Positions 8,815 to 19,358 of a DNA stretch of 64,000 nucleotides are shown piece after piece; within the stretch, counting starts at the first letter, position 1; each line of letters opens with the position of its first letter. The stretch is from Bacteroidales bacterium (GTDB taxonomy: Bacteria > Bacteroidota > Bacteroidia > Bacteroidales > JAHJDW01): contig JAQUPB010000001.1 of the NCBI GenBank assembly GCA_029004185.1, forward strand, positions 1,322 to 65,321, read 5' to 3'. The position numbers were made by a program, and so were the translations under genes. The notes under the pieces are model-generated. The model saw only the letters and a program-made list of their open reading frames with translations, did not search any database and was not told the DNA's origin.

Positions 8815-9231
8815 ATGATAAACAATAATTTTAAACATAGCGACATTACCGAAAAGATATTACGCGCATTCTTTAATGTTTATAACAGCTTAGGTTATGG
8901 ATTTCTTGAAAAGGTTTATGAAAATGCAATGTTGATCGAATTAATAAAATTAAATCTTAATGCAGTGAAGCAAAGTCCTGCAAAAATATATTATGATGAT
9001 GTTCTGGTTGGCGATTATTTTGCCGACATTGTTGTAGAAAATAAAGTTATTCTTGAACTAAAAGCCATTGAAAACCTTTGTCCTGAGCATGAAGTGCAGT
9101 TGGTAAATTACCTGAAAGCAACAGAAATTGAAGTTGGTTTATTGCTTAACTTCGGTAAAAAGCCGCAGTACAAAAGAAGAGTATTGACAAAAGAATATAG
9201 AAATAAAAAAGTAGACGCGGATTTAATATAA
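8815..9231 (+). CDS. GxxExxY protein (PD-(D/E)XK nuclease-like superfamily)
   Basis: 138 aa. Contains GYGFLEKVYENAM (GxxExxY) and DIVVENKVILELK (a D...ExK-like core). The last six codons lie in repeat F4. Confidence 0.8.
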   Translation: MINNNFKHSDITEKILRAFFNVYNSLGYGFLEKVYENAMLIELIKLNLNAVKQSPAKIYYDDVLVGDYFADIVVENKVILELKAIENLCPEHEVQLVNYLKATEIEVGLLLNFGKKPQYKRRVLTKEYRNKKVDADLI

Positions 9232-9825: not shown

Positions 9826-9837
9826 TAATTGTATTAT

Positions 9838-9870
9838 AAAAGGCTGTCTTTATTTATAAGACAGCCTTTT
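9838..9870 (+). terminator. Intrinsic terminator or attenuator immediately after the precursor gene
   Basis: Perfect 13 bp stem (aaaaggctgtctt / aagacagcctttt) with the 7 nt loop tatttat. Starts 13 nt after the stop codon. Confidence 0.65.
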
Positions 9871-9906
9871 ACTTTATGTAAAGTATAACTATTAAAATAA
9901 AAATAA

Positions 9907-10959: not shown

Positions 10960-11946
10960 ATGCTTTTAATATTTAGCGAAGAAACAGATAGAACAACAGA
11001 TTATGTTTGCTCATGGTTAAATTATTTGAAAACATCTTATGTTAGGATTAATAATAAAATAAATGCTAATATAATTGATGAAATTGAAATAAGTAATAAT
11101 ACTATAAATATAAATCTCAGCCGAAAACAAAATAAATACAAATTTGAAGATATTGATATTGTCTGGTTCAGGCGAGGATATTTAACTTTTTCTGTTGAAA
11201 ATTTGAAAGAACTAAATATTTCCGAAAATGCAAGAGAAGAAATAAATAGACATATAATTGAACAAAATACAACACTTGGGATTTTTTTTTATGAAAATAC
11301 AAAATATAAAAAAACCATAAATGACCCAAGAATATATAATGCCAATAAATTAATAACATTACAAACTGCAATTGATATCGGACTAAAAGTTCCCGCAACA
11401 ATAATTACAAAAAATAAAAACAGCATCCTTAACTTCAAGAGGAAATACAAAAATATTATAACAAAGCATATTCAGGATATTATTAATATGATACTTGAAG
11501 ATGGTAAAAACATTTTTGTGTTAACCAATAAAGTTTATAAAAAAGAAATAACAGAAGAAACTTATTATTATTCATTATTTCAAGAAGAAATTAAAAAGAA
11601 ATATGAATTAAGAATATTTTATTTTCTTGGTAAGTTTTACAGTGCGGCAATATTTTCGCAATTAAGTGAAGTTTCAAAAATTGATTTCAGAGATAATAAT
11701 CTAAATAGAGAAAAACCAAGTAGAATAGCACCGTTTAACCTACCTAAAGAAATAAAAATAAAACTTGATAATTTGATGAAAAAATCAAGTTTAGAAAGCG
11801 GCTCAATAGATATGATTGTTACGCCGGAAAATGAATATGTTTTTTTGGAAGTTAATCCTGTTGGACAACTTGATTTTGTTAGCAAACCATGCAATTATTA
11901 TATTGAAAAAGACATTGCAAAATATTTTAGAGATGGAAAAATCTGA
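10960..11946 (+). CDS. ATP-grasp peptide maturase (RiPP ligase, grasp-with-SPASM type)
   Basis: 328 aa. ELRIFYF and the C-terminal GSIDMIV...YVFLEVNPVGQ match the ATP-grasp Mg/ATP-binding region. The N-terminus MLLIFSEETDRTTDYVCSWL resembles what I recall for this maturase family. Confidence 0.8.
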   Translation: MLLIFSEETDRTTDYVCSWLNYLKTSYVRINNKINANIIDEIEISNNTININLSRKQNKYKFEDIDIVWFRRGYLTFSVENLKELNISENAREEINRHIIEQNTTLGIFFYENTKYKKTINDPRIYNANKLITLQTAIDIGLKVPATIITKNKNSILNFKRKYKNIITKHIQDIINMILEDGKNIFVLTNKVYKKEITEETYYYSLFQEEIKKKYELRIFYFLGKFYSAAIFSQLSEVSKIDFRDNNLNREKPSRIAPFNLPKEIKIKLDNLMKKSSLESGSIDMIVTPENEYVFLEVNPVGQLDFVSKPCNYYIEKDIAKYFRDGKI

Positions 11947-12127: not shown

Positions 12128-13255
12128 ATGAATACAGATAAAAAATATTTTCGTTTATTTGCCACATGTATTCCCGTGAAAGGATACGAACGTTCTGCTA
12201 TTTGCGATATTCATAGATGTAATGTTGAGTTTATTCCCAATTCACTTTATGAAATTATTACAAATAATGAAAACAAAACTTATAGCGAATTGATTGAAAT
12301 ATTTGGAGCAGAACAAAAACAAGTGATTGATGAATATTTTGAATTTTTGCTCGAAAAAGAATTCGGATATTTCTTTAATAAAGACGAATTGGAGCTTTTT
12401 CCTAAACTTAATCTGCAATGGGATTTTTATTCTGATGTGAGCAATGCAATAATTGATTTAAAAGAATATTCGAATTATGATATAAAAGAAGCAATTAAAC
12501 AACTTGATGATATTGATTGTTTCCATTTGCAAATAAGATTTTTTTTAAAAACACAAAAAGAAAAAATAATTGAATTACTTGAATTGATTAATGAAACGTC
12601 AATACGTTCAGTTCAAGTCATGTTGTCTTTCAATACTTTAAATAATACAGATGAATACATACAGCTTTGTAAAGATTACTTAAAAATAAGTAAAATCGAA
12701 TGTTATAATAGCAGGAAGAGTGAAATAATAGATGTGTTCGGAAACCTTTCGCAAGTTTTATTAAACGGAAAAAAAATAAAAGATGAAACTACTTGTGGTA
12801 TGGTAGATGTTGGGTATTTTTCACCAAACACACCACATTTTACCGAATCCCAACATCACAATACTTGCCTGAACCGAAAAATTAGTATTGATGCAAATGG
12901 TAAAATTAAAAACTGTCCTTCGATGCAAAAGAGTTTTGGAAATATTAAAAATACAACATTAAAAGAGGCATTGGGAAAACCTGGTTTTAAAGATTTGTGG
13001 AGCATAAGAAAAGATGATATTGATGTTTGCAAAGATTGTGAATTTCGTTATATATGCACTGACTGCAGAGCATACTTAAAAGACCCAAGCAATATTTATT
13101 CACAACCGGCAAAATGTCTGTATAATCCTTATATTGCCAAATGGGAAGGTGAAGAAGGTTATATAAAAGTTGAGGACTGGCGGAAACAAAACCCTGATTG
13201 GGAAAAGGGATTAAAAAGGGAACCATTAGTAAAAAAAATTCAATTAGTGCAATGA
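12128..13255 (+). CDS. SPASM-domain peptide maturase lacking the canonical radical-SAM CX3CX2C motif
   Basis: 375 aa. The C-terminal Cys pattern is CX10GX4C (CLNRKISIDANGKIKNC), then CKDCEFRYICTDC (CX2CX5CX2C), then a distal Cys (AKCLYNPY). The N-terminal Cys are C14, C26 and C31 (CX11CX4C), so there is no CX3CX2C. Confidence 0.8.
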   Translation: MNTDKKYFRLFATCIPVKGYERSAICDIHRCNVEFIPNSLYEIITNNENKTYSELIEIFGAEQKQVIDEYFEFLLEKEFGYFFNKDELELFPKLNLQWDFYSDVSNAIIDLKEYSNYDIKEAIKQLDDIDCFHLQIRFFLKTQKEKIIELLELINETSIRSVQVMLSFNTLNNTDEYIQLCKDYLKISKIECYNSRKSEIIDVFGNLSQVLLNGKKIKDETTCGMVDVGYFSPNTPHFTESQHHNTCLNRKISIDANGKIKNCPSMQKSFGNIKNTTLKEALGKPGFKDLWSIRKDDIDVCKDCEFRYICTDCRAYLKDPSNIYSQPAKCLYNPYIAKWEGEEGYIKVEDWRKQNPDWEKGLKREPLVKKIQLVQ

Positions 13256-15441
13256 AAAATTTCCCCTTCTATACCCAACTCGATTCAATGGACTGCGGTC
13301 CCTCATGTTTACGCATGATTGCGAAGCATTACGGAAAGACATATACATTGCAGAATTTGCGTGATAAAAGTTTTATTACACGTGAAGGAGTGTCGTTACT
13401 TGGTATTAGCGATGCAGCTGAAGCAATTGGCTTTCGCACAATGGGAGTGAAAATAAGTTTTGAAAAACTTGCAAAAGAAGCTCCACTGCCTTGCATTGTA
13501 CATTGGAATCAGAATCATTTTGTGGTGGTATATAAAATACATAAAAACAATGTTTATGTAGCCGATCCCGGACATGGGTTGGTAAAATATACAACCGAAG
13601 AATTTAAGAAATGCTGGCTCAGCACAAAAGCCGAAGGCGAAGAAAAGGGAATTGCATTGCTTTTAGAGCCGACACCCGACTTTTATAAAATCGAAGATGA
13701 GAAAAAAAACAAATCAAGTTTTGGATATTTATTTTCTTATTTAACACCTTATAAAAAATTTATAGTACAGTTAATACTTGGGTTGCTGCTTGGCAGCATG
13801 CTGCAGCTTGTATTTCCTTTCCTTACCCAATCGGTAGTTGATGTAGGTATAAGTAACCAGAACATAAATTTTATTTATCTGGTTCTTATTGCACAATTAA
13901 TGTTGTTCTTCAGTCGGGCTACAGTTGATTTTATCCGCGGCTGGATATTACTGCACCTTGGCACGCGAATAAACATCTCGCTTATTTCCGACTTCCTGAT
14001 GAAATTAATGAAACTGCCAATCGGCTTTTTCGATACAAAAATGATTGGCGATTTAATGCAGCGCATTTCAGATAATCACCGAATAGAAACATTTCTTACT
14101 TCATCATCACTGAGTATTTTATTTTCAATGATGAATTTAATCATATTCAGCATCGTACTTGCAATTTATAGTTTGAAGATATTTATAATATTTCTTGCAG
14201 GTAGTATTCTATACACGCTTTGGATATGGATTTTCCTGAAAAAACGCCGCGAACTTGATTTTAAACGTTTTGCTCAAATGTCGGACAATCAAAGCAACTT
14301 ATTCCAATTGATTACCGGCATGCAGGAAATAAAACTTAATAATTGCGAAAAGCAAAAGCGATGGGAATGGGAACGGATACAATCAAAATTATTCAAAGTA
14401 AGCATAAAGAGTTTGGCATTATCGCAATATCAGCAAGCCGGTTCGGTAGTAATTAATGAAACAAAAAATATAATCATTTCCATAATAGCGGCAAAAGCGG
14501 TGATAGACGGCAATATTACACTCGGTATGATGCTTGCCGTTCAGTATATAATCGGGCAGTTGAACAGCCCTATTGAACAGATGATAAATTTTATACAGGC
14601 AGCACAGGATGCAAAAATAAGCTTGGAACGATTAGGCGAAATTCACAACAAGAAAGATGAGGAAAATCCCGATGATGAGAAAATCACAATATTCCCCGAA
14701 AATAAAAGTATTTCAATAAATGAACTTTCATTTCAATATGAAGGACCACATTCCGAATTTGTTTTGCAGGATTTAAGTTTGAATATTCCCGAAAGTAAAA
14801 TTACAGCAATAGTAGGAACAAGCGGAAGCGGAAAAACAACAATGGTTAAATTAATGCTTGGATTTTACCCGCCGACAAAAGGAGAAATAAAAATAGGAGA
14901 TGTGGGATTGCCGAATTTCAGCCAAAGAATGTGGCGTGCAAAATGCGGAGCGGTAATGCAGGACGGATTTATTTTTTCAGATACAATTGCAAAAAATATT
15001 GCAGTGAGTGACGAAACAGTTAATAAAGAAAAACTATTACATGCCGTAAAAGTGGCGAACATACAGGAGTTCATCGAATCGTTGCCTCTTGGTTACAACT
15101 CAAAAATCGGACAGGAAGGACACGGAATAAGTCAGGGACAAAAACAAAGAATGTTGATAGCACGGGCAGTTTACAAAAATCCCGAATATATTTTCTTTGA
15201 TGAAGCCACAAATGCATTAGATGCGAATAATGAGCTTGTGATAATGAAAAATCTTGAAGAGTTCTTTAAAGGAAAGACGGTTATCATTGTAGCACACAGA
15301 TTAAGCACAGTGAAAAATGCAGATAAAATAGTTGTTTTAGAAAAGGGAAAAATTGTAGAAACAGCAAATCATGAAGAACTGACAAATTTGAGAGGAGCAT
15401 ATTATAATTTGGTAAAAAACCAGTTGGAACTGGGGAATTAG
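13252..15441 (+). CDS. Peptidase C39 domain-containing ABC transporter (bacteriocin/RiPP processing exporter)
   Basis: The N-terminus QLDSMDCGPSCLRMIAKHYG carries the C39 catalytic Cys. Six-TM region, Walker A GTSGSGKTT, signature ISQGQKQR, Walker B IFFDEATNALD. Start chosen at the ATG at 13252, which overlaps the upstream TGA (ATGA). Confidence 0.9.
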   Translation: MKNFPFYTQLDSMDCGPSCLRMIAKHYGKTYTLQNLRDKSFITREGVSLLGISDAAEAIGFRTMGVKISFEKLAKEAPLPCIVHWNQNHFVVVYKIHKNNVYVADPGHGLVKYTTEEFKKCWLSTKAEGEEKGIALLLEPTPDFYKIEDEKKNKSSFGYLFSYLTPYKKFIVQLILGLLLGSMLQLVFPFLTQSVVDVGISNQNINFIYLVLIAQLMLFFSRATVDFIRGWILLHLGTRINISLISDFLMKLMKLPIGFFDTKMIGDLMQRISDNHRIETFLTSSSLSILFSMMNLIIFSIVLAIYSLKIFIIFLAGSILYTLWIWIFLKKRRELDFKRFAQMSDNQSNLFQLITGMQEIKLNNCEKQKRWEWERIQSKLFKVSIKSLALSQYQQAGSVVINETKNIIISIIAAKAVIDGNITLGMMLAVQYIIGQLNSPIEQMINFIQAAQDAKISLERLGEIHNKKDEENPDDEKITIFPENKSISINELSFQYEGPHSEFVLQDLSLNIPESKITAIVGTSGSGKTTMVKLMLGFYPPTKGEIKIGDVGLPNFSQRMWRAKCGAVMQDGFIFSDTIAKNIAVSDETVNKEKLLHAVKVANIQEFIESLPLGYNSKIGQEGHGISQGQKQRMLIARAVYKNPEYIFFDEATNALDANNELVIMKNLEEFFKGKTVIIVAHRLSTVKNADKIVVLEKGKIVETANHEELTNLRGAYYNLVKNQLELGN

Positions 15442-15531: not shown

Positions 15532-16839
15532 ATGGAAAAAGAAGAAATAAATAAAATAGAAATCCGCAGCGAAGAAGTGCAGGAAATTCTTGGCAGACCA
15601 CCACGTTGGGTTATACGTTGGGGAATTACTGTCATATTTATTGTTATTGCTGTTATTTTTATTGGAAGTTATTTTTTCAAATATCCCGATGTAATTAACT
15701 CTACAATAATTGTAAATACAGAGAACTTACCTGCAAATGTTGTAGCAAAAACAAATGGAAAAATCGTAGCTCTTTTTATTAAGGACAAACAAAAAGTTAA
15801 AAAAGATAACATACTTGCAATAATTGAAAACCCTGCAAACTTTGATGATGTAGTAAGGTTAAAAATAAAATTAGATTCCGTAAATATCAAAAGTATTCTG
15901 TTAAAAGATTCAATGAAAACCATACAATTCAATGAAAGTTATATTTTAGGCGATTTGCAAACTTCGTATATCGGATTTCTGAAAGGGCTGAAAGATTATC
16001 AGATATTTATTGAATCAGATTTTCAGCACAAAAAAATAAATTCACTCAAAAATCAAATAAGCAAATACAATACTTTATTATCCCGGCTTTCGAAACAATC
16101 AAATATAATGGACAAGCAACTTGATATTGCAAAGCAGCAACATTCAAGAGATTCGGCATTATATAAAAACAGCACTATTTCAAAAATTGATTTTGAAAAA
16201 TCGGAAAATGCCTTATTGCAAAGTAAATACTCTTATGAAAGTGCAAAAAGCAGTTTGGATAATACAAGAATTACGATTTCTCAGATAGAACAAAATATTT
16301 TAGAACTCCAGCAACAATACGATGAACAAAAACAACAACTCGAACTAGCTTTAAACAACAATTATGAAGCATTGAAAAATCAAATTAAAACGTGGGAACA
16401 AACATATTTATTAAAAAGCCCTATTGATGGAAAAGTTACTTTTACTCAATACTGGAGCGTGAATCAAAATGTAAAAGCAGGAGATAATGTTATTACCATT
16501 GTTCCCGAAAAAGAAGCAAAAATTATAGGAAAAATTAAACTACCGATACAAGGTTCAGGAAAAGTAAAAGTTGGCCAGAAAGTAAACATTAAGTTTGCAA
16601 ATTACCCATACATGGAATATGGGATGGTAAAAGGAATAATAAAGTCAATATCACTTGTTCCTATGGATGCAAATTATACAGTAGAAGTTGAATTACCCGA
16701 AGGATTAAAAACAAACTACAACAAAACTCTTATCTTCAGCCAGGAAATGCAGGGAAGTGCAGAAATTATTACTGATGATATACGTTTAATAGAAAGATTT
16801 TTAAATCCTTTGAAAGCTGTTTGGAAAAAGAATATCTGA
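15532..16839 (+). CDS. HlyD-family secretion adaptor protein
   Basis: 435 aa. N-terminal TM anchor after RSEEVQEILGRPPRWVIRWG, a long coiled-coil-like Q/E/L-rich middle, and a beta-barrel-like C-terminus. Confidence 0.85.
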   Translation: MEKEEINKIEIRSEEVQEILGRPPRWVIRWGITVIFIVIAVIFIGSYFFKYPDVINSTIIVNTENLPANVVAKTNGKIVALFIKDKQKVKKDNILAIIENPANFDDVVRLKIKLDSVNIKSILLKDSMKTIQFNESYILGDLQTSYIGFLKGLKDYQIFIESDFQHKKINSLKNQISKYNTLLSRLSKQSNIMDKQLDIAKQQHSRDSALYKNSTISKIDFEKSENALLQSKYSYESAKSSLDNTRITISQIEQNILELQQQYDEQKQQLELALNNNYEALKNQIKTWEQTYLLKSPIDGKVTFTQYWSVNQNVKAGDNVITIVPEKEAKIIGKIKLPIQGSGKVKVGQKVNIKFANYPYMEYGMVKGIIKSISLVPMDANYTVEVELPEGLKTNYNKTLIFSQEMQGSAEIITDDIRLIERFLNPLKAVWKKNI

Positions 16840-16916: not shown

Positions 16917-19358
16917 ATGAACAAATTTTTTTACATATTATTTTTTCTTGCCCTTGCATTTGCTTCCTCCTCACAGGAATTGCAAATACAAGGTAAATTA
17001 ATTGACAGTACCACAAAAGCGTCATTACAGTTTTCAAATATTATAATTAAAAATCAAAATGATTCTGTTATAAAAGGAGTTCTTACAAACGAAAAGGGAG
17101 AATTCAAAATAAATTTGGTAATTGGTAATGGGTATAAGCTGGTTGCAAACAGCATGGGGTACAAAGAAAAAACCATTTTACTGAATATAGATATAAAAAC
17201 CAAAACATATAGAATCGGAGAAATAACCCTTGCGCCGAAAGTATTTCAGTTGAAAGAAACGAATGTAGCTTCTAACGTACCATACATGGAAAAAAAGTTT
17301 GACCGCAAGGTTTTTAACATCAGCGAAGCAAAAACTGCAGCGGCACGTTCAATATTTGATTTACTACGGACTTTACCAGGTGTTGTCGTTAATGAAGAAG
17401 GAAGTGTGCGATACAAAGGAGCAGAAGCAACAATATATGTTGATGACCAGCCGTCAAATTTTATGTATCCGAAACTTGAAATGATTCCTGTTGCAAAAGT
17501 TGACAAAATAGAATTGATTGATGCTTCAATGCAATCAGGAGGGGAAGGTAAAGGAGGAATAATCAATATTAAAATGAAATCTGTTAATACAGATGGATTA
17601 AGCGGAATTGCTTCATCTGATATTAATACCATTGAATTTAAAAATATTGATAAATCGGAGAATTTTGTTAATGCAAACTATAAAAAAAATAAAGTAACAA
17701 TATTAAATAATTTTTCGATTGATGAAAATTTATATAATAGTAGTAGTCAATCTGAAAGTAAAATAAGCGCTTTTCAAACACCAACCGAACAAAGTTCAAA
17801 TTATTCTAGTAATTCCGATAATAAATCATATTATGATTATTTCGGTGCTATTTATAATCCTACAAAAAAGACAAGATTTTATTTTGGTGGCGGAACATAT
17901 AATTCCTCTTTCATATCAGGTTCTTCAGGCGATTTTACTGAACTTGAAAGTTCCATCAAAAGTATTCTGAATAGTAATAATAATTGCCATAGGTATGATT
18001 CAAAATATGATTATAAAGGAATAAATTTTTCTTTCCGACATAAATTTGATACAAATGATACTTATATAAGGATGTTTGCAGGGTTTCAATTTATTGACGA
18101 TTTTTCTAATTCTTCCGCAACTTATAATTATGAAATAATAAATTCTGTTTGTTATGATAGTATATTTAAATATGATAGAAAAGATTTATCATATGGAAAC
18201 AGAGGTTTATACAGTAATATTTTTTATAATCATACTATTTCAAAAAATGCAAGATGGAATATTCGATATTATAATTACTTCAAATTAAAAGAAAACAATG
18301 ACAGCAAATACTACATCTTTGATGATTTGTACATGCCTGAAACTTATTCCAATAATTCCACATCACAATACCATAACATGTCAGCCCGTATTGGCTCAAA
18401 CTGGAATAAATGGAAATTTGATGGCGGAGTAAACGCACAATATACTAAAACAGAAATAGCTTTTTTAAGACATACTGAAGAATTAAAAGATACAGCATTC
18501 TCTGTAGTTAAAGATTATTTAAAAATATTGCCTTCAGTTACAATATCATTTGCAATAAATGATACGGAAGAAATAAAACTTACATTATCGCAGACAACAC
18601 AAACACCATATTATCTCCAACTTTCTGACTACATAAGCAAAGAAAATCCATATTATTGGTGGTCGGGAAATTCCAAATTAAAACCATCGGATTTTTATTC
18701 TGCATATCTTGGGTATTCATATACAAAAGAAAAATGGAATGCATCGGCGGAAGGATTTTTCAACTATACAAACAATGAAATTACTTATGTTTCTTATCCT
18801 TTGACTTCTATGCTTTATCTTTCCAAACCTATGAATGGTGCAAAGAAAAGTGAAACAGGTATTGATGTTTCAACATGGGTAATGGTTACTGATAAATTAA
18901 ACTTTTCGCTATCATCGAGTATTTCTTATGTTTACTATAATTCAAAAGCATTACAAGAAAGCGCAAGTAAATATAACCTTCCTACGGAGAATTTAATTAA
19001 CCGGCAATTTGGTTACAATATAAAATATAACATGGAATATAAAATAAAAAAATTCTATGCTATGTTTTATGTTAATTATTTCAGCAGGGAATTAAAATAC
19101 AATGGATATAATTATGGTTATATAAACTCATCATTTAATGTGAGCAGGAAATTCTTTAAGGATAAATTAAGAATCACTTTAAGTGCAAATAACCTGTTTG
19201 ATGACATGGTAAAACGCGGCTCTGTTGAAAATTATTTTGGTATTTACCAGGTTGAAAGAAGACATTCTTCAAATTATAAACGGATGTATGGAATTTCCAT
19301 TCAATACACTTTCCGCCAGGGCGATAGAGGCACAAAGGATATGAAAGTCGGGGGATAA
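16917..19358 (+). CDS. Outer-membrane beta-barrel protein with an N-terminal carboxypeptidase-regulatory-like domain and a TonB-receptor-like plug
   Basis: 813 aa. Signal peptide, then IQGKLIDSTT...GEFKINL (CarboxypepD_reg-like) and DLLRTLPGVVVNEEGSVRYKG (plug-like). The remainder is rich in aromatic, Asn and Ser residues and ends YGISIQYTF. Confidence 0.75.
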   Translation: MNKFFYILFFLALAFASSSQELQIQGKLIDSTTKASLQFSNIIIKNQNDSVIKGVLTNEKGEFKINLVIGNGYKLVANSMGYKEKTILLNIDIKTKTYRIGEITLAPKVFQLKETNVASNVPYMEKKFDRKVFNISEAKTAAARSIFDLLRTLPGVVVNEEGSVRYKGAEATIYVDDQPSNFMYPKLEMIPVAKVDKIELIDASMQSGGEGKGGIINIKMKSVNTDGLSGIASSDINTIEFKNIDKSENFVNANYKKNKVTILNNFSIDENLYNSSSQSESKISAFQTPTEQSSNYSSNSDNKSYYDYFGAIYNPTKKTRFYFGGGTYNSSFISGSSGDFTELESSIKSILNSNNNCHRYDSKYDYKGINFSFRHKFDTNDTYIRMFAGFQFIDDFSNSSATYNYEIINSVCYDSIFKYDRKDLSYGNRGLYSNIFYNHTISKNARWNIRYYNYFKLKENNDSKYYIFDDLYMPETYSNNSTSQYHNMSARIGSNWNKWKFDGGVNAQYTKTEIAFLRHTEELKDTAFSVVKDYLKILPSVTISFAINDTEEIKLTLSQTTQTPYYLQLSDYISKENPYYWWSGNSKLKPSDFYSAYLGYSYTKEKWNASAEGFFNYTNNEITYVSYPLTSMLYLSKPMNGAKKSETGIDVSTWVMVTDKLNFSLSSSISYVYYNSKALQESASKYNLPTENLINRQFGYNIKYNMEYKIKKFYAMFYVNYFSRELKYNGYNYGYINSSFNVSRKFFKDKLRITLSANNLFDDMVKRGSVENYFGIYQVERRHSSNYKRMYGISIQYTFRQGDRGTKDMKVGG

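Follow-up and report, generated by a model that had tools for sequence, protein, structure and literature searches.

The closest described systems are the graspetide loci of 'branch 5', in which a SPASM protein cited as TIGR04193 is found in the neighbourhood of an ATP-grasp ligase (Makarova et al., 2022; PMC8939145). Graspetides belong to the RiPPs, peptides that are made on ribosomes and modified after translation. Genomic surveys have termed the SPASM protein a radical SAM (S-adenosylmethionine) enzyme and have predicted thioether or C-C cross-links; a thioether or disulfide role has been suggested by analogy with sactisynthases. The literature describes this grasp-with-spasm system as specific to Bacteroides or Bacteroidetes, and genes named gwsG and gwsS have been reported on integrative and conjugative elements of Porphyromonas gingivalis, where they are followed by a three-part exporter (bioRxiv 10.64898/2026.08.04.741601). 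Grasp-with-spasm clusters are very common. The published literature that we searched holds genomic surveys only, with no product or enzyme assay for the group. Here we describe GwsS, a 375 aa protein encoded by the open reading frame (ORF) at 12128-13255 of a 64,000 nt stretch of a Bacteroidales contig (JAQUPB010000001.1; this whole stretch is called the window below). GwsS has a SPASM domain and lacks the CX3CX2C motif of radical SAM enzymes. It is probably the SPASM protein of 'group 14' (Carter et al., 2026; PMC13097080).

GwsS scores 342.3 bits against the NCBIfam profile TIGR04193 (cut-off 175), with residues 7-340 aligned to profile positions 1-333 of 342. The TIGR04192 neighbour, the cysteine pattern without CX3CX2C and the cluster context all agree with this assignment, and we regard the ORF as almost certainly a member of TIGR04193 that has no canonical SAM site. 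The family is named 'grasp-with-spasm system SPASM domain peptide maturase' (gwsS), a name that does not appear in the initial annotation of this DNA. The branch 5 loci have the same neighbours as the window (TIGR04192, the small protein LPL, a cluster-23-like protein, a C39-peptidase/ABC exporter (PCAT), HlyD and an outer-membrane barrel), the same eight SPASM cysteines and no CX3CX2C. Nothing essential differs between the window and the relatives; the precursor core in the window is Cys-free, whereas approximately 70 % of the relatives' candidate precursors contain Cys. The search for relatives gave more than 4,800 at 90 % clustering, 120 of which were listed, and even the nearest relatives among the matches listed share no more than 58 % identity with GwsS. 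GwsS is an ordinary new member of a known, named family.

NCBI family names separate 'SPASM domain' and 'pseudo-rSAM' from 'radical SAM/SPASM', so the absence of a radical SAM (rSAM) site is implicitly known to the curators. Judging from these names, 'radical SAM' was presumably left out of the name of TIGR04193 on purpose. The missing motif is real and family-wide and, because the family is already catalogued, it is not a new discovery. What is new here is the universality of the absence, the lack of any alternative cysteine site, an N-terminus that resembles a RiPP recognition element (RRE) and a shortened barrel, together with a SPASM domain that is hyper-conserved relative to GwsG, natural LPL-GwsS fusions and a spread beyond Bacteroidota.

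The pattern C...C..C occurs nowhere in the 375 aa of GwsS, as the initial annotation had stated. The motif is absent from all of the 120 listed relatives and from all of 195 non-redundant sequences, a set that combines the 120 database proteins with ORFs from 80 genome loci and that is used for the family conservation values given below. The Radical_SAM profile (PF04055) is absent from all 120 relatives among the matches listed. When 32 members (GwsS and 31 relatives) were scanned against Pfam at E<=10, SPASM was the one family matched, and Radical_SAM, Fer4_12/14 and PqqD were absent; in GwsS the SPASM match covers residues 248-305 and stands alone. There is no GGE-type motif conserved past the second core strand in the family alignment, and the loop behind the first core strand has 7 residues, none of them Cys, in both the AlphaFold2 (AF2) model and the alignment. 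GwsS therefore lacks each of the marks of the radical SAM superfamily, namely the cluster motif, the profile match, the SAM motifs and, in the predicted structure, the (beta/alpha)6 barrel. Since part of the barrel, the CX3CX2C loop and the SAM motifs have been lost, GwsS is predicted to be unable to generate 5'-deoxyadenosyl radicals, and the earlier claim that it has no canonical SAM-cleaving site is upheld. The radical SAM-based prediction of thioether or C-C cross-links for the whole family is, on the same sequence evidence, probably wrong.

A trivial explanation would be that the motif is missing as an artefact, either because the gene is a truncated or frameshifted pseudogene or because its start has been mis-called or its sequence contains an error. 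There is indeed a small ORF upstream that is in frame with GwsS and separated from it by one stop codon, so that the protein might be lengthened by read-through or if the stop were an error. The initial annotation had placed this ORF in a different frame, which is incorrect as a single TAA lies between two ORFs of the same frame, but its view that a missed N-terminal extension is unlikely holds. The upstream ORF is Cys-free and is a conserved, separate gene, and position 1 of the TIGR04193 profile already aligns with residue 7 of GwsS, so that no rSAM segment has been missed. The 195 relatives come from many assemblies and have the same length and architecture, and a motif that is absent family-wide has been lost neither by sequencing error nor locally. 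The family alignment had been named as the place where a conserved CX3CX2C, overlooked or lost by error, might come to light, and it contains none. The artefact is effectively refuted by the family-wide pattern and we consider its probability to be negligible.

The cysteines of GwsS are at positions 14, 26, 31, 131, 181, 192, 223, 247, 263, 301, 304, 310, 313 and 330. C14 (12167-12169) and C131 (12518-12520) lie outside the SPASM domain and yet are conserved in 95 % and 94 % of the family, respectively; the corresponding values are 46 % for C26 and 1 % for C31. A non-canonical cluster held by C14, C26 and C31 (CX11CX4C), which had been offered as a possibility, is not supported by these values, as only C14 is conserved. 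A site formed by C14 and C131 is rejected too. The two residues are replaced independently (C14 by Thr, Ile or Val; C131 by Val, Ile, Thr or Ser) and so do not behave as ligands of one cluster, and no third cysteine is conserved along with them. Outside the SPASM domain, the 195 sequences share no triad of conserved cysteines. Provision of a radical SAM partner in trans was rejected as well. A true rSAM gene is present within 6 kb in only six of the 80 gws loci and in none of the other 74, and the six have Cys-rich precursors of their own beside them, which argues that GwsS is not the auxiliary half of a split rSAM enzyme.

The SPASM domain, by contrast with these sites, is fully conserved in its cysteines. 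The spacings reported in the initial annotation are exact: C247-X10-G258-X4-C263, then C301-X2-C304-X5-C310-X2-C313 and the distal C330. The CX2CX5CX2C portion is one residue shorter than the textbook SPASM spacing (CX2CX5CX3C). GwsS passes the SPASM profiles TIGR04085 (30.5 bits, cut-off 27) and PF13186 (30.4 bits, cut-off 21.5). There is one further invariant cysteine, C223, which had not been mentioned before, and C223, C247, C263, C301, C304, C310, C313 and C330 are each conserved in at least 99.5 % of the family sequences. Seven of the SPASM cysteines are in register with those of true rSAM/SPASM maturases in a profile alignment (E 0.012), and C223 is likely to be the eighth cluster ligand. 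Eight invariant cysteines would suffice for the full ligation of two [4Fe-4S] clusters, which we infer to be bound.

These cysteines bear on whether GwsS might be a cryptic, non-canonical radical SAM enzyme, in which a cluster with an open iron, held by the SPASM domain or by scattered ligands, cleaves SAM without CX3CX2C. Dph2 cleaves SAM using three distant cysteines. A small molecule could be bound by the many polar residues of the hyper-conserved SPASM domain, ligation by C223 is uncertain because residues 224-247 are modelled at low confidence, and the literature loosely calls the family a radical SAM enzyme (PMC8939145). However, if the eight cysteines fully ligate both auxiliary clusters there is no open site left. 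Scattered ligands fare no better, as there is no conserved triad outside the SPASM domain, C14 and C131 have been lost independently and C26 and C31 are unconserved. SAM-binding motifs and any signal of the Radical_SAM profile are likewise absent, and the barrel that would hold SAM is roughly halved in the AF2 model. We consider a cryptic radical SAM activity to be very unlikely.

The SPASM domain is the most conserved and most constrained element of the cluster. Within GwsS, mean pairwise identity is 36 % in the RRE-like domain, 26 % in the core, which is the least conserved part, and 62 % in the SPASM domain. In the SPASM domain 37 columns, many of them polar, are at least 95 % conserved, compared with one column in the core. 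The same holds in comparison with the partner enzyme. At the 64 loci where GwsG and GwsS are both complete, mean pairwise identity is 59 % for the SPASM domain of GwsS, 35 % for GwsG and 32 % for the N-terminal half of GwsS, and SPASM identity exceeds GwsG identity in 99.8 % of locus pairs. In true maturases, in contrast, conservation lies in the barrel: the invariant residues of four of these proteins are those of CX3CX2C and GGEP, and in their SPASM part little is invariant beyond the cysteines. As the pattern in GwsS is the reverse of this, its SPASM domain is not a decaying relic.

Three other families, TIGR04150 (pseudo-rSAM), TIGR04347 (pseudo-SAM/SPASM) and TIGR04304 (GeoRSP SPASM), likewise carry a SPASM domain and are not named as true rSAM proteins. 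We know of no characterised members of any of them. The SPASM domain of GwsS matches TIGR04304 (E 1.3e-4) and TIGR04150 (E 7.4e-4) weakly and far below the cut-offs, showing that these are different families. The partner of TIGR04150 is a genuine rSAM maturase; that of GwsS is an ATP-grasp ligase, and in 74 of the 80 gws loci no rSAM gene is nearby.

The AF2 model of GwsS was built on 32 sequences and has a mean predicted local distance difference test score (pLDDT) of 81.8. In this model residues 1-88 adopt the winged-helix fold of an RRE, with strands at 7-10, 14-17, 23-27 and 32-36 and helices at 38-46, 52-59 and 61-76 (pLDDT 84-96). Foldseek matches the N-terminus to the lasso-peptide RRE TbiB1 (5v1v) over 84 columns, with an rmsd of 2.4 Å and a target TM of 0.68. 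The PqqD profile (PF05402) had no match at E<=10 among 32 family members, and the domain is not recognised as an RRE by its sequence. RREs are often too divergent for Pfam detection. The core that follows has approximately three beta-alpha units plus extra strands within about 110 residues. Structure modelling had been proposed as a way of finding a partial TIM barrel with alternative Cys ligands; the model does contain a partial, shortened beta/alpha core, but the alternative ligands are not supported. Confidence is low in the linker between the RRE-like domain and the core and at 224-247, where it might fit cluster-binding loops that have been modelled without metal.

In a Foldseek search of the PDB, eight matches reached E<=0.001, all of them chains of either SuiB (5v1s, 5v1t and 5v1q; best E 3.8e-6) or CteB (5why and 5wgg). 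SkfB (6efn) comes next, and the middle domain of GwsS resembles pieces of generic TIM barrels. SuiB, CteB and SkfB are radical SAM enzymes that modify RiPPs and have a domain for auxiliary clusters at the C-terminus, and SuiB and CteB also have N-terminal RREs. These best structural matches are collinear with GwsS, an RRE being followed by an alpha/beta core and then, at the C-terminus, by an Fe-S domain. GwsS differs from them in that it has no CX3CX2C loop, no SAM motifs and approximately 100 fewer barrel residues. This last figure follows from a comparison with the true RRE-rSAM-SPASM maturases in related loci, which are 435-448 aa long with CX3CX2C at about residue 105, whereas the SPASM domain of GwsS ends at about residue 340. 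In the model, the core of GwsS appears to be a remnant of the rSAM barrel without the cluster loop or the SAM motifs. The isolated core has a weak and non-significant NCBIfam match to PapB (E 0.023, profile positions 141-231 of 330), which hints that the surviving core is the distal half of the barrel; confirmation of this failed.

No sequence similarity to SuiB, CteB or SkfB is detectable outside the SPASM domain. A profile search of PDB sequences with the GwsS family found nothing relevant, and when the family was compared by hhalign with one and then with four true rSAM/SPASM maturases the SPASM domain alone was aligned (E 0.012). The isolated RRE and core profiles gave alignments that are collinear yet non-significant. 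All attempts to prove an rSAM-barrel origin of the N-terminal 222 residues at the level of sequence therefore failed or were non-significant, and it is the predicted fold that links the N-terminal half to rSAM maturases. The model is consistent with descent of GwsS from RRE-rSAM-SPASM maturases of the SuiB/CteB type, in which case the RRE and the eight-Cys SPASM domain would have been kept.

The small ORF between GwsG and GwsS encodes a protein of the LPL family, which has been described previously (PMC8939145). It contains no Cys. It shares 14 nt with the end of the GwsG gene and has the same frame as GwsS, the one TAA between them abutting the GwsS ATG (the upstream ORF spans 11816/11933-12127). 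The GwsG gene lies 181 nt 5' of the GwsS gene. This arrangement is typical, as the gap in 72 related pairs has a median of 185 nt and, in most of the pairs, is filled by an ORF of 53-85 aa. The LPL ORFs of related loci have LP[LF]x[YF] at the N-terminus and FYKPISK at the C-terminus, for which the window copy has FPFNYQYL and FYKSISRF, and homologues of 58-64 aa are annotated as a gene in other genomes. Four sequences (P0074, P0081, P0118 and L020) carry LPL as an in-frame N-terminal fusion to GwsS. In L020, a metagenome-assembled genome (MAG) labelled Chitinophaga pinensis, the fusion ORF begins 7 nt past GwsG. A search of the whole library with the 64-aa LPL for fusions to other partners gave seven small homologues only. 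Taken together, the overlapping or abutting genes and the LPL-GwsS fusions argue that GwsG, LPL and GwsS are made together and may act as a complex.

Adjacency of LPL and GwsS is not universal. In L069 (144-2664) the LPL ORF is followed by a 401-aa signal-peptide protein and then by GwsS. This locus is at a contig edge, from which position we presume that its LPL still follows GwsG.

The arrangement resembles that of PqqD and PqqE, in which the gene for a small protein is also directly 5' of that for the SPASM protein, and LPL has been proposed to be a PqqD analogue (PMC8939145). PqqD is a stand-alone RRE, however, whereas the RRE-like fold is within GwsS itself and LPL has no RRE signature and is mostly disordered in the model of a fusion. 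PqqE also differs from GwsS in being a true radical SAM enzyme.

The initial annotation had raised the possibility that GwsS assists the ATP-grasp enzyme as a redox or scaffold partner. Such a role is plausible and fits the translational coupling with GwsG and LPL, the LPL-GwsS fusions and the RRE-like N-terminus. Our tentative reading, in which we have somewhat less than even confidence, is that GwsS is an RRE-guided, SAM-independent Fe-S subunit of a GwsG/LPL/GwsS maturase, a pseudo-rSAM protein whose SPASM domain carries an essential function. GwsS, GwsG and LPL would be made in fixed stoichiometry from translationally coupled genes. GwsS would dock on the GG-leader precursor through its RRE, the LPL adaptor would link GwsS to GwsG, and GwsS would then perform a SAM-independent, Fe-S-dependent step on a peptide that is bound, or has been cyclised, by GwsG. 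Electron transfer or redox tailoring is one possibility for this step and cluster-dependent peptide handling is another, and the SPASM domain would be the functional centre. The C39-ABC/HlyD/outer-membrane exporter would finally cut the leader and export the product. Partner-protein-dependent graspetide synthetases have precedent, which supports the reading of GwsS as a partner of GwsG (PMC13097080).

Several points weigh against this proposal. That GwsS binds Fe-S clusters, that its RRE binds the leader, that LPL serves as an adaptor and that any chemistry takes place are all things that we infer. Fe-S clusters with a structural role alone can also be fully conserved, and conservation is no proof of catalysis. 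The N-terminal 222 residues are homologous to rSAM maturases at the level of fold only, and global TM-scores between GwsS and SuiB or CteB are only about 0.3, which means that the likeness is one of architecture and domains and is not a rigid-body match. In the AF2 model of the natural LPL-GwsS fusion P0118 the LPL part was left unplaced (pLDDT <50), and the contacts of LPL to its partners are hypothetical. Finally, the precursor cores are hypervariable and have no obvious common target beyond the Ser, Thr, Asp, Glu and Lys residues that form esters and amides, as noted also in PMC8939145. The substrate of a conserved tailoring site is therefore hard to name.

This last point also counts in favour of GwsS being a non-catalytic partner or scaffold, since hypervariable cores offer no common target for a tailoring enzyme. 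As such a pseudoenzyme, GwsS would bind the leader through its RRE and stabilise or activate GwsG across an LPL bridge, its two clusters would be structural, and the product would be modified by nothing but the ester and amide cross-links that GwsG forms. The ancestral catalytic half is gone while the RRE has been kept, the genes are tightly coupled, LPL-GwsS fusions exist and the family co-occurs with ATP-grasp. Branch 5 leaders do not have the usual ligase-binding motif, and the motif of LPL resembles it (PMC8939145). There is a precedent in the MirB/MirC pair of rosaritide biosynthesis, in which a co-purifying partner, encoded beside the ATP-grasp ligase and present in a complex with it, is required for activity and stability (PMC13097080). 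MirC is a PpiC-type chaperone-domain protein, is not an Fe-S protein and has no homology to GwsS, so the analogy is one of function only. The conservation data weigh against this explanation. An interface with a fast-evolving partner should drift too, whereas the SPASM domain is 59 % identical where GwsG is 35 % identical and has 37 columns at 95 % or above. Moreover, all eight cysteines are kept (at least 99.5 % in the 195 sequences) across several phyla, aerobes included. We regard a purely non-catalytic GwsS as possible, though somewhat less likely than the Fe-S subunit proposed above.

It is also conceivable, though we think it unlikely, that GwsS is a true enzyme with its active centre relocated to the SPASM domain and that it carries out RRE-guided Fe-S peptide tailoring, either independently of SAM or with a non-canonical use of SAM. 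It would then add a modification not seen so far to peptides cyclised by the ATP-grasp ligase. If the SPASM centre is catalytic, SPASM-only proteins would be a new class of RiPP tailoring proteins, branch 5 graspetides would extend beyond lactone and lactam rings, and the family would reveal what auxiliary clusters do alone. We would expect reconstitution of the pathway to call for three proteins (GwsG, LPL and GwsS), to involve clusters that are sensitive to oxygen and to need no SAM.

The precursors set one limit on the function of GwsS. The candidate precursors 5' of GwsG in related loci commonly have a leader of the type MKKLESLN..KF..L..M..LVGG, as does the window precursor, and their cores are hypervariable. 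The cores of 15 of the 53 candidates, including that of the window, contain no Cys. A Cys-directed role (thioether or disulfide formation) is thereby ruled out as the general function of GwsS. The core of the window precursor is rich in Gly, Ser, Thr, Asp, Lys and Tyr. Its leader matches TIGR04149 weakly (E 0.0015, below the cut-off).

The positions of the genes and of the domains of GwsS are given in Table 1. By the profile families and ORF positions, the GwsS locus is a complete graspetide gene cluster with all genes on the + strand.

Table 1. Features of the gws cluster in the window and of the domains of GwsS
Feature	Position	Strand	Evidence
Precursor peptide, 69 aa	9616..9825	+	ORF; leader = MKKLESIKNAKFEALNKNQMGKLNGG
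Terminator-like hairpin, 14-bp stem, T-rich tail, 12 nt past precursor stop	9837..9871	+	Consensus scan only
Protein with signal-peptide-like N-terminus, 349 aa	9907..10956	+	21 ORFs in related loci match by BLAST
GwsG, ATP-grasp peptide maturase (graspetide synthetase)	10960..11946	+	TIGR04192, 254 bits vs cut-off 230, full length
LPL-family small protein, 64 aa	11933..12127	+	Motifs FPFNYQYL, FYKSISRF
GwsS, SPASM-domain peptide maturase, 375 aa	12128..13255	+	TIGR04193, 342 bits
RRE-like (PqqD-fold) domain, GwsS aa 1-88	12128..12391	+	AF2 and Foldseek
Shortened beta/alpha core, GwsS aa 106-212	12443..12763	+	AF2, Foldseek local TIM-barrel matches
SPASM domain, GwsS aa 223-340	12794..13147	+	TIGR04085 and PF13186, eight invariant Cys
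C39-peptidase/ABC exporter (PCAT)	13252..15441	+	PF03412, PF00664, PF00005; bacteriocin ABC NCBIfam families
HlyD-family membrane fusion protein	15532..16839	+	TIGR01843, PF13437
Outer-membrane beta-barrel (CarboxypepD_reg + Plug + OMP_b-brl_3)	16917..19358	+	PF14905, E 3.7e-33

Just 5' of the precursor gene there is a gene for a GxxExxY protein (8815-9231, + strand; TIGR04256, E 1e-38). The hairpin that follows the precursor gene is possibly an attenuator or partial terminator that would raise the ratio of precursor to enzymes, although the number of terminator-like sites in the region, this one among them, is not above the shuffled expectation. The 349-aa protein has no family match in Pfam or NCBIfam. 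From its position and features it is probably a member of 'cluster 23', a graspetide-associated family of secreted proteins or lipoproteins (Makarova et al., 2022; PMC8939145).

Downstream of GwsS, the stop codon TGA overlaps the ATG of the exporter gene (ATGA, 13252-13255), which suggests translational coupling of the two. This ATG is likely to be the true start of the exporter, and the TTG at 13198 that is listed as the start probably makes the gene 18 codons too long. The exporter would cut the GG leader and export the peptide. The barrel protein is the probable outer-membrane part of the export system, and outer-membrane proteins of the PF14905 type are among the graspetide-associated families (PMC8939145). 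The exporter genes of the P. gingivalis gws loci are arranged in the same way (bioRxiv 10.64898/2026.08.04.741601).

In related loci, 72 of the 83 GwsS genes have a GwsG ORF on the same strand directly upstream. Most of the remaining 11 are near a contig end; in the two checked loci with sequence upstream (L013 and L034), GwsG-like sequence was found 5' of GwsS by tblastn, and the contig-edge locus L069 has a divergent gene order. Relatives of GwsS are present in Bacteroidota, including gut and oral species and mobile elements of P. gingivalis, as well as in MAGs labelled Acidobacteriota, Gemmatimonadota and Myxococcaceae and in single MAGs labelled Longimicrobiaceae and Hyphomicrobiales. Complete gws pairs are found in MAGs labelled Thermoanaerobaculia, Acidobacteriota, Blastocatellia, Gemmatimonadetes, Longimicrobiaceae, Myxococcaceae and, in one case, Hyphomicrobiales (these loci are L030, L032, L037, L044, L045, L047-L049, L053-L055, L058-L060, L064, L074 and L080). 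This wider occurrence depends on the MAG labels, among which binning errors are possible.

Finally, several genomes carry a second gws cluster, either a few kb from the first or on the same contig (L016 and L031, both on OW818690.1; L023; L067; and L075). True RRE-rSAM-SPASM maturases are found less than 6 kb from gws genes at L001:1173-2480, L008:8581-9927, L016:1004-2344 and L038:381-1712. The co-location of gws genes and true maturases suggests that there are RiPP islands in which two systems share one type of leader. At least in L001, Cys-rich precursors with GG leaders lie beside the true rSAM maturase.

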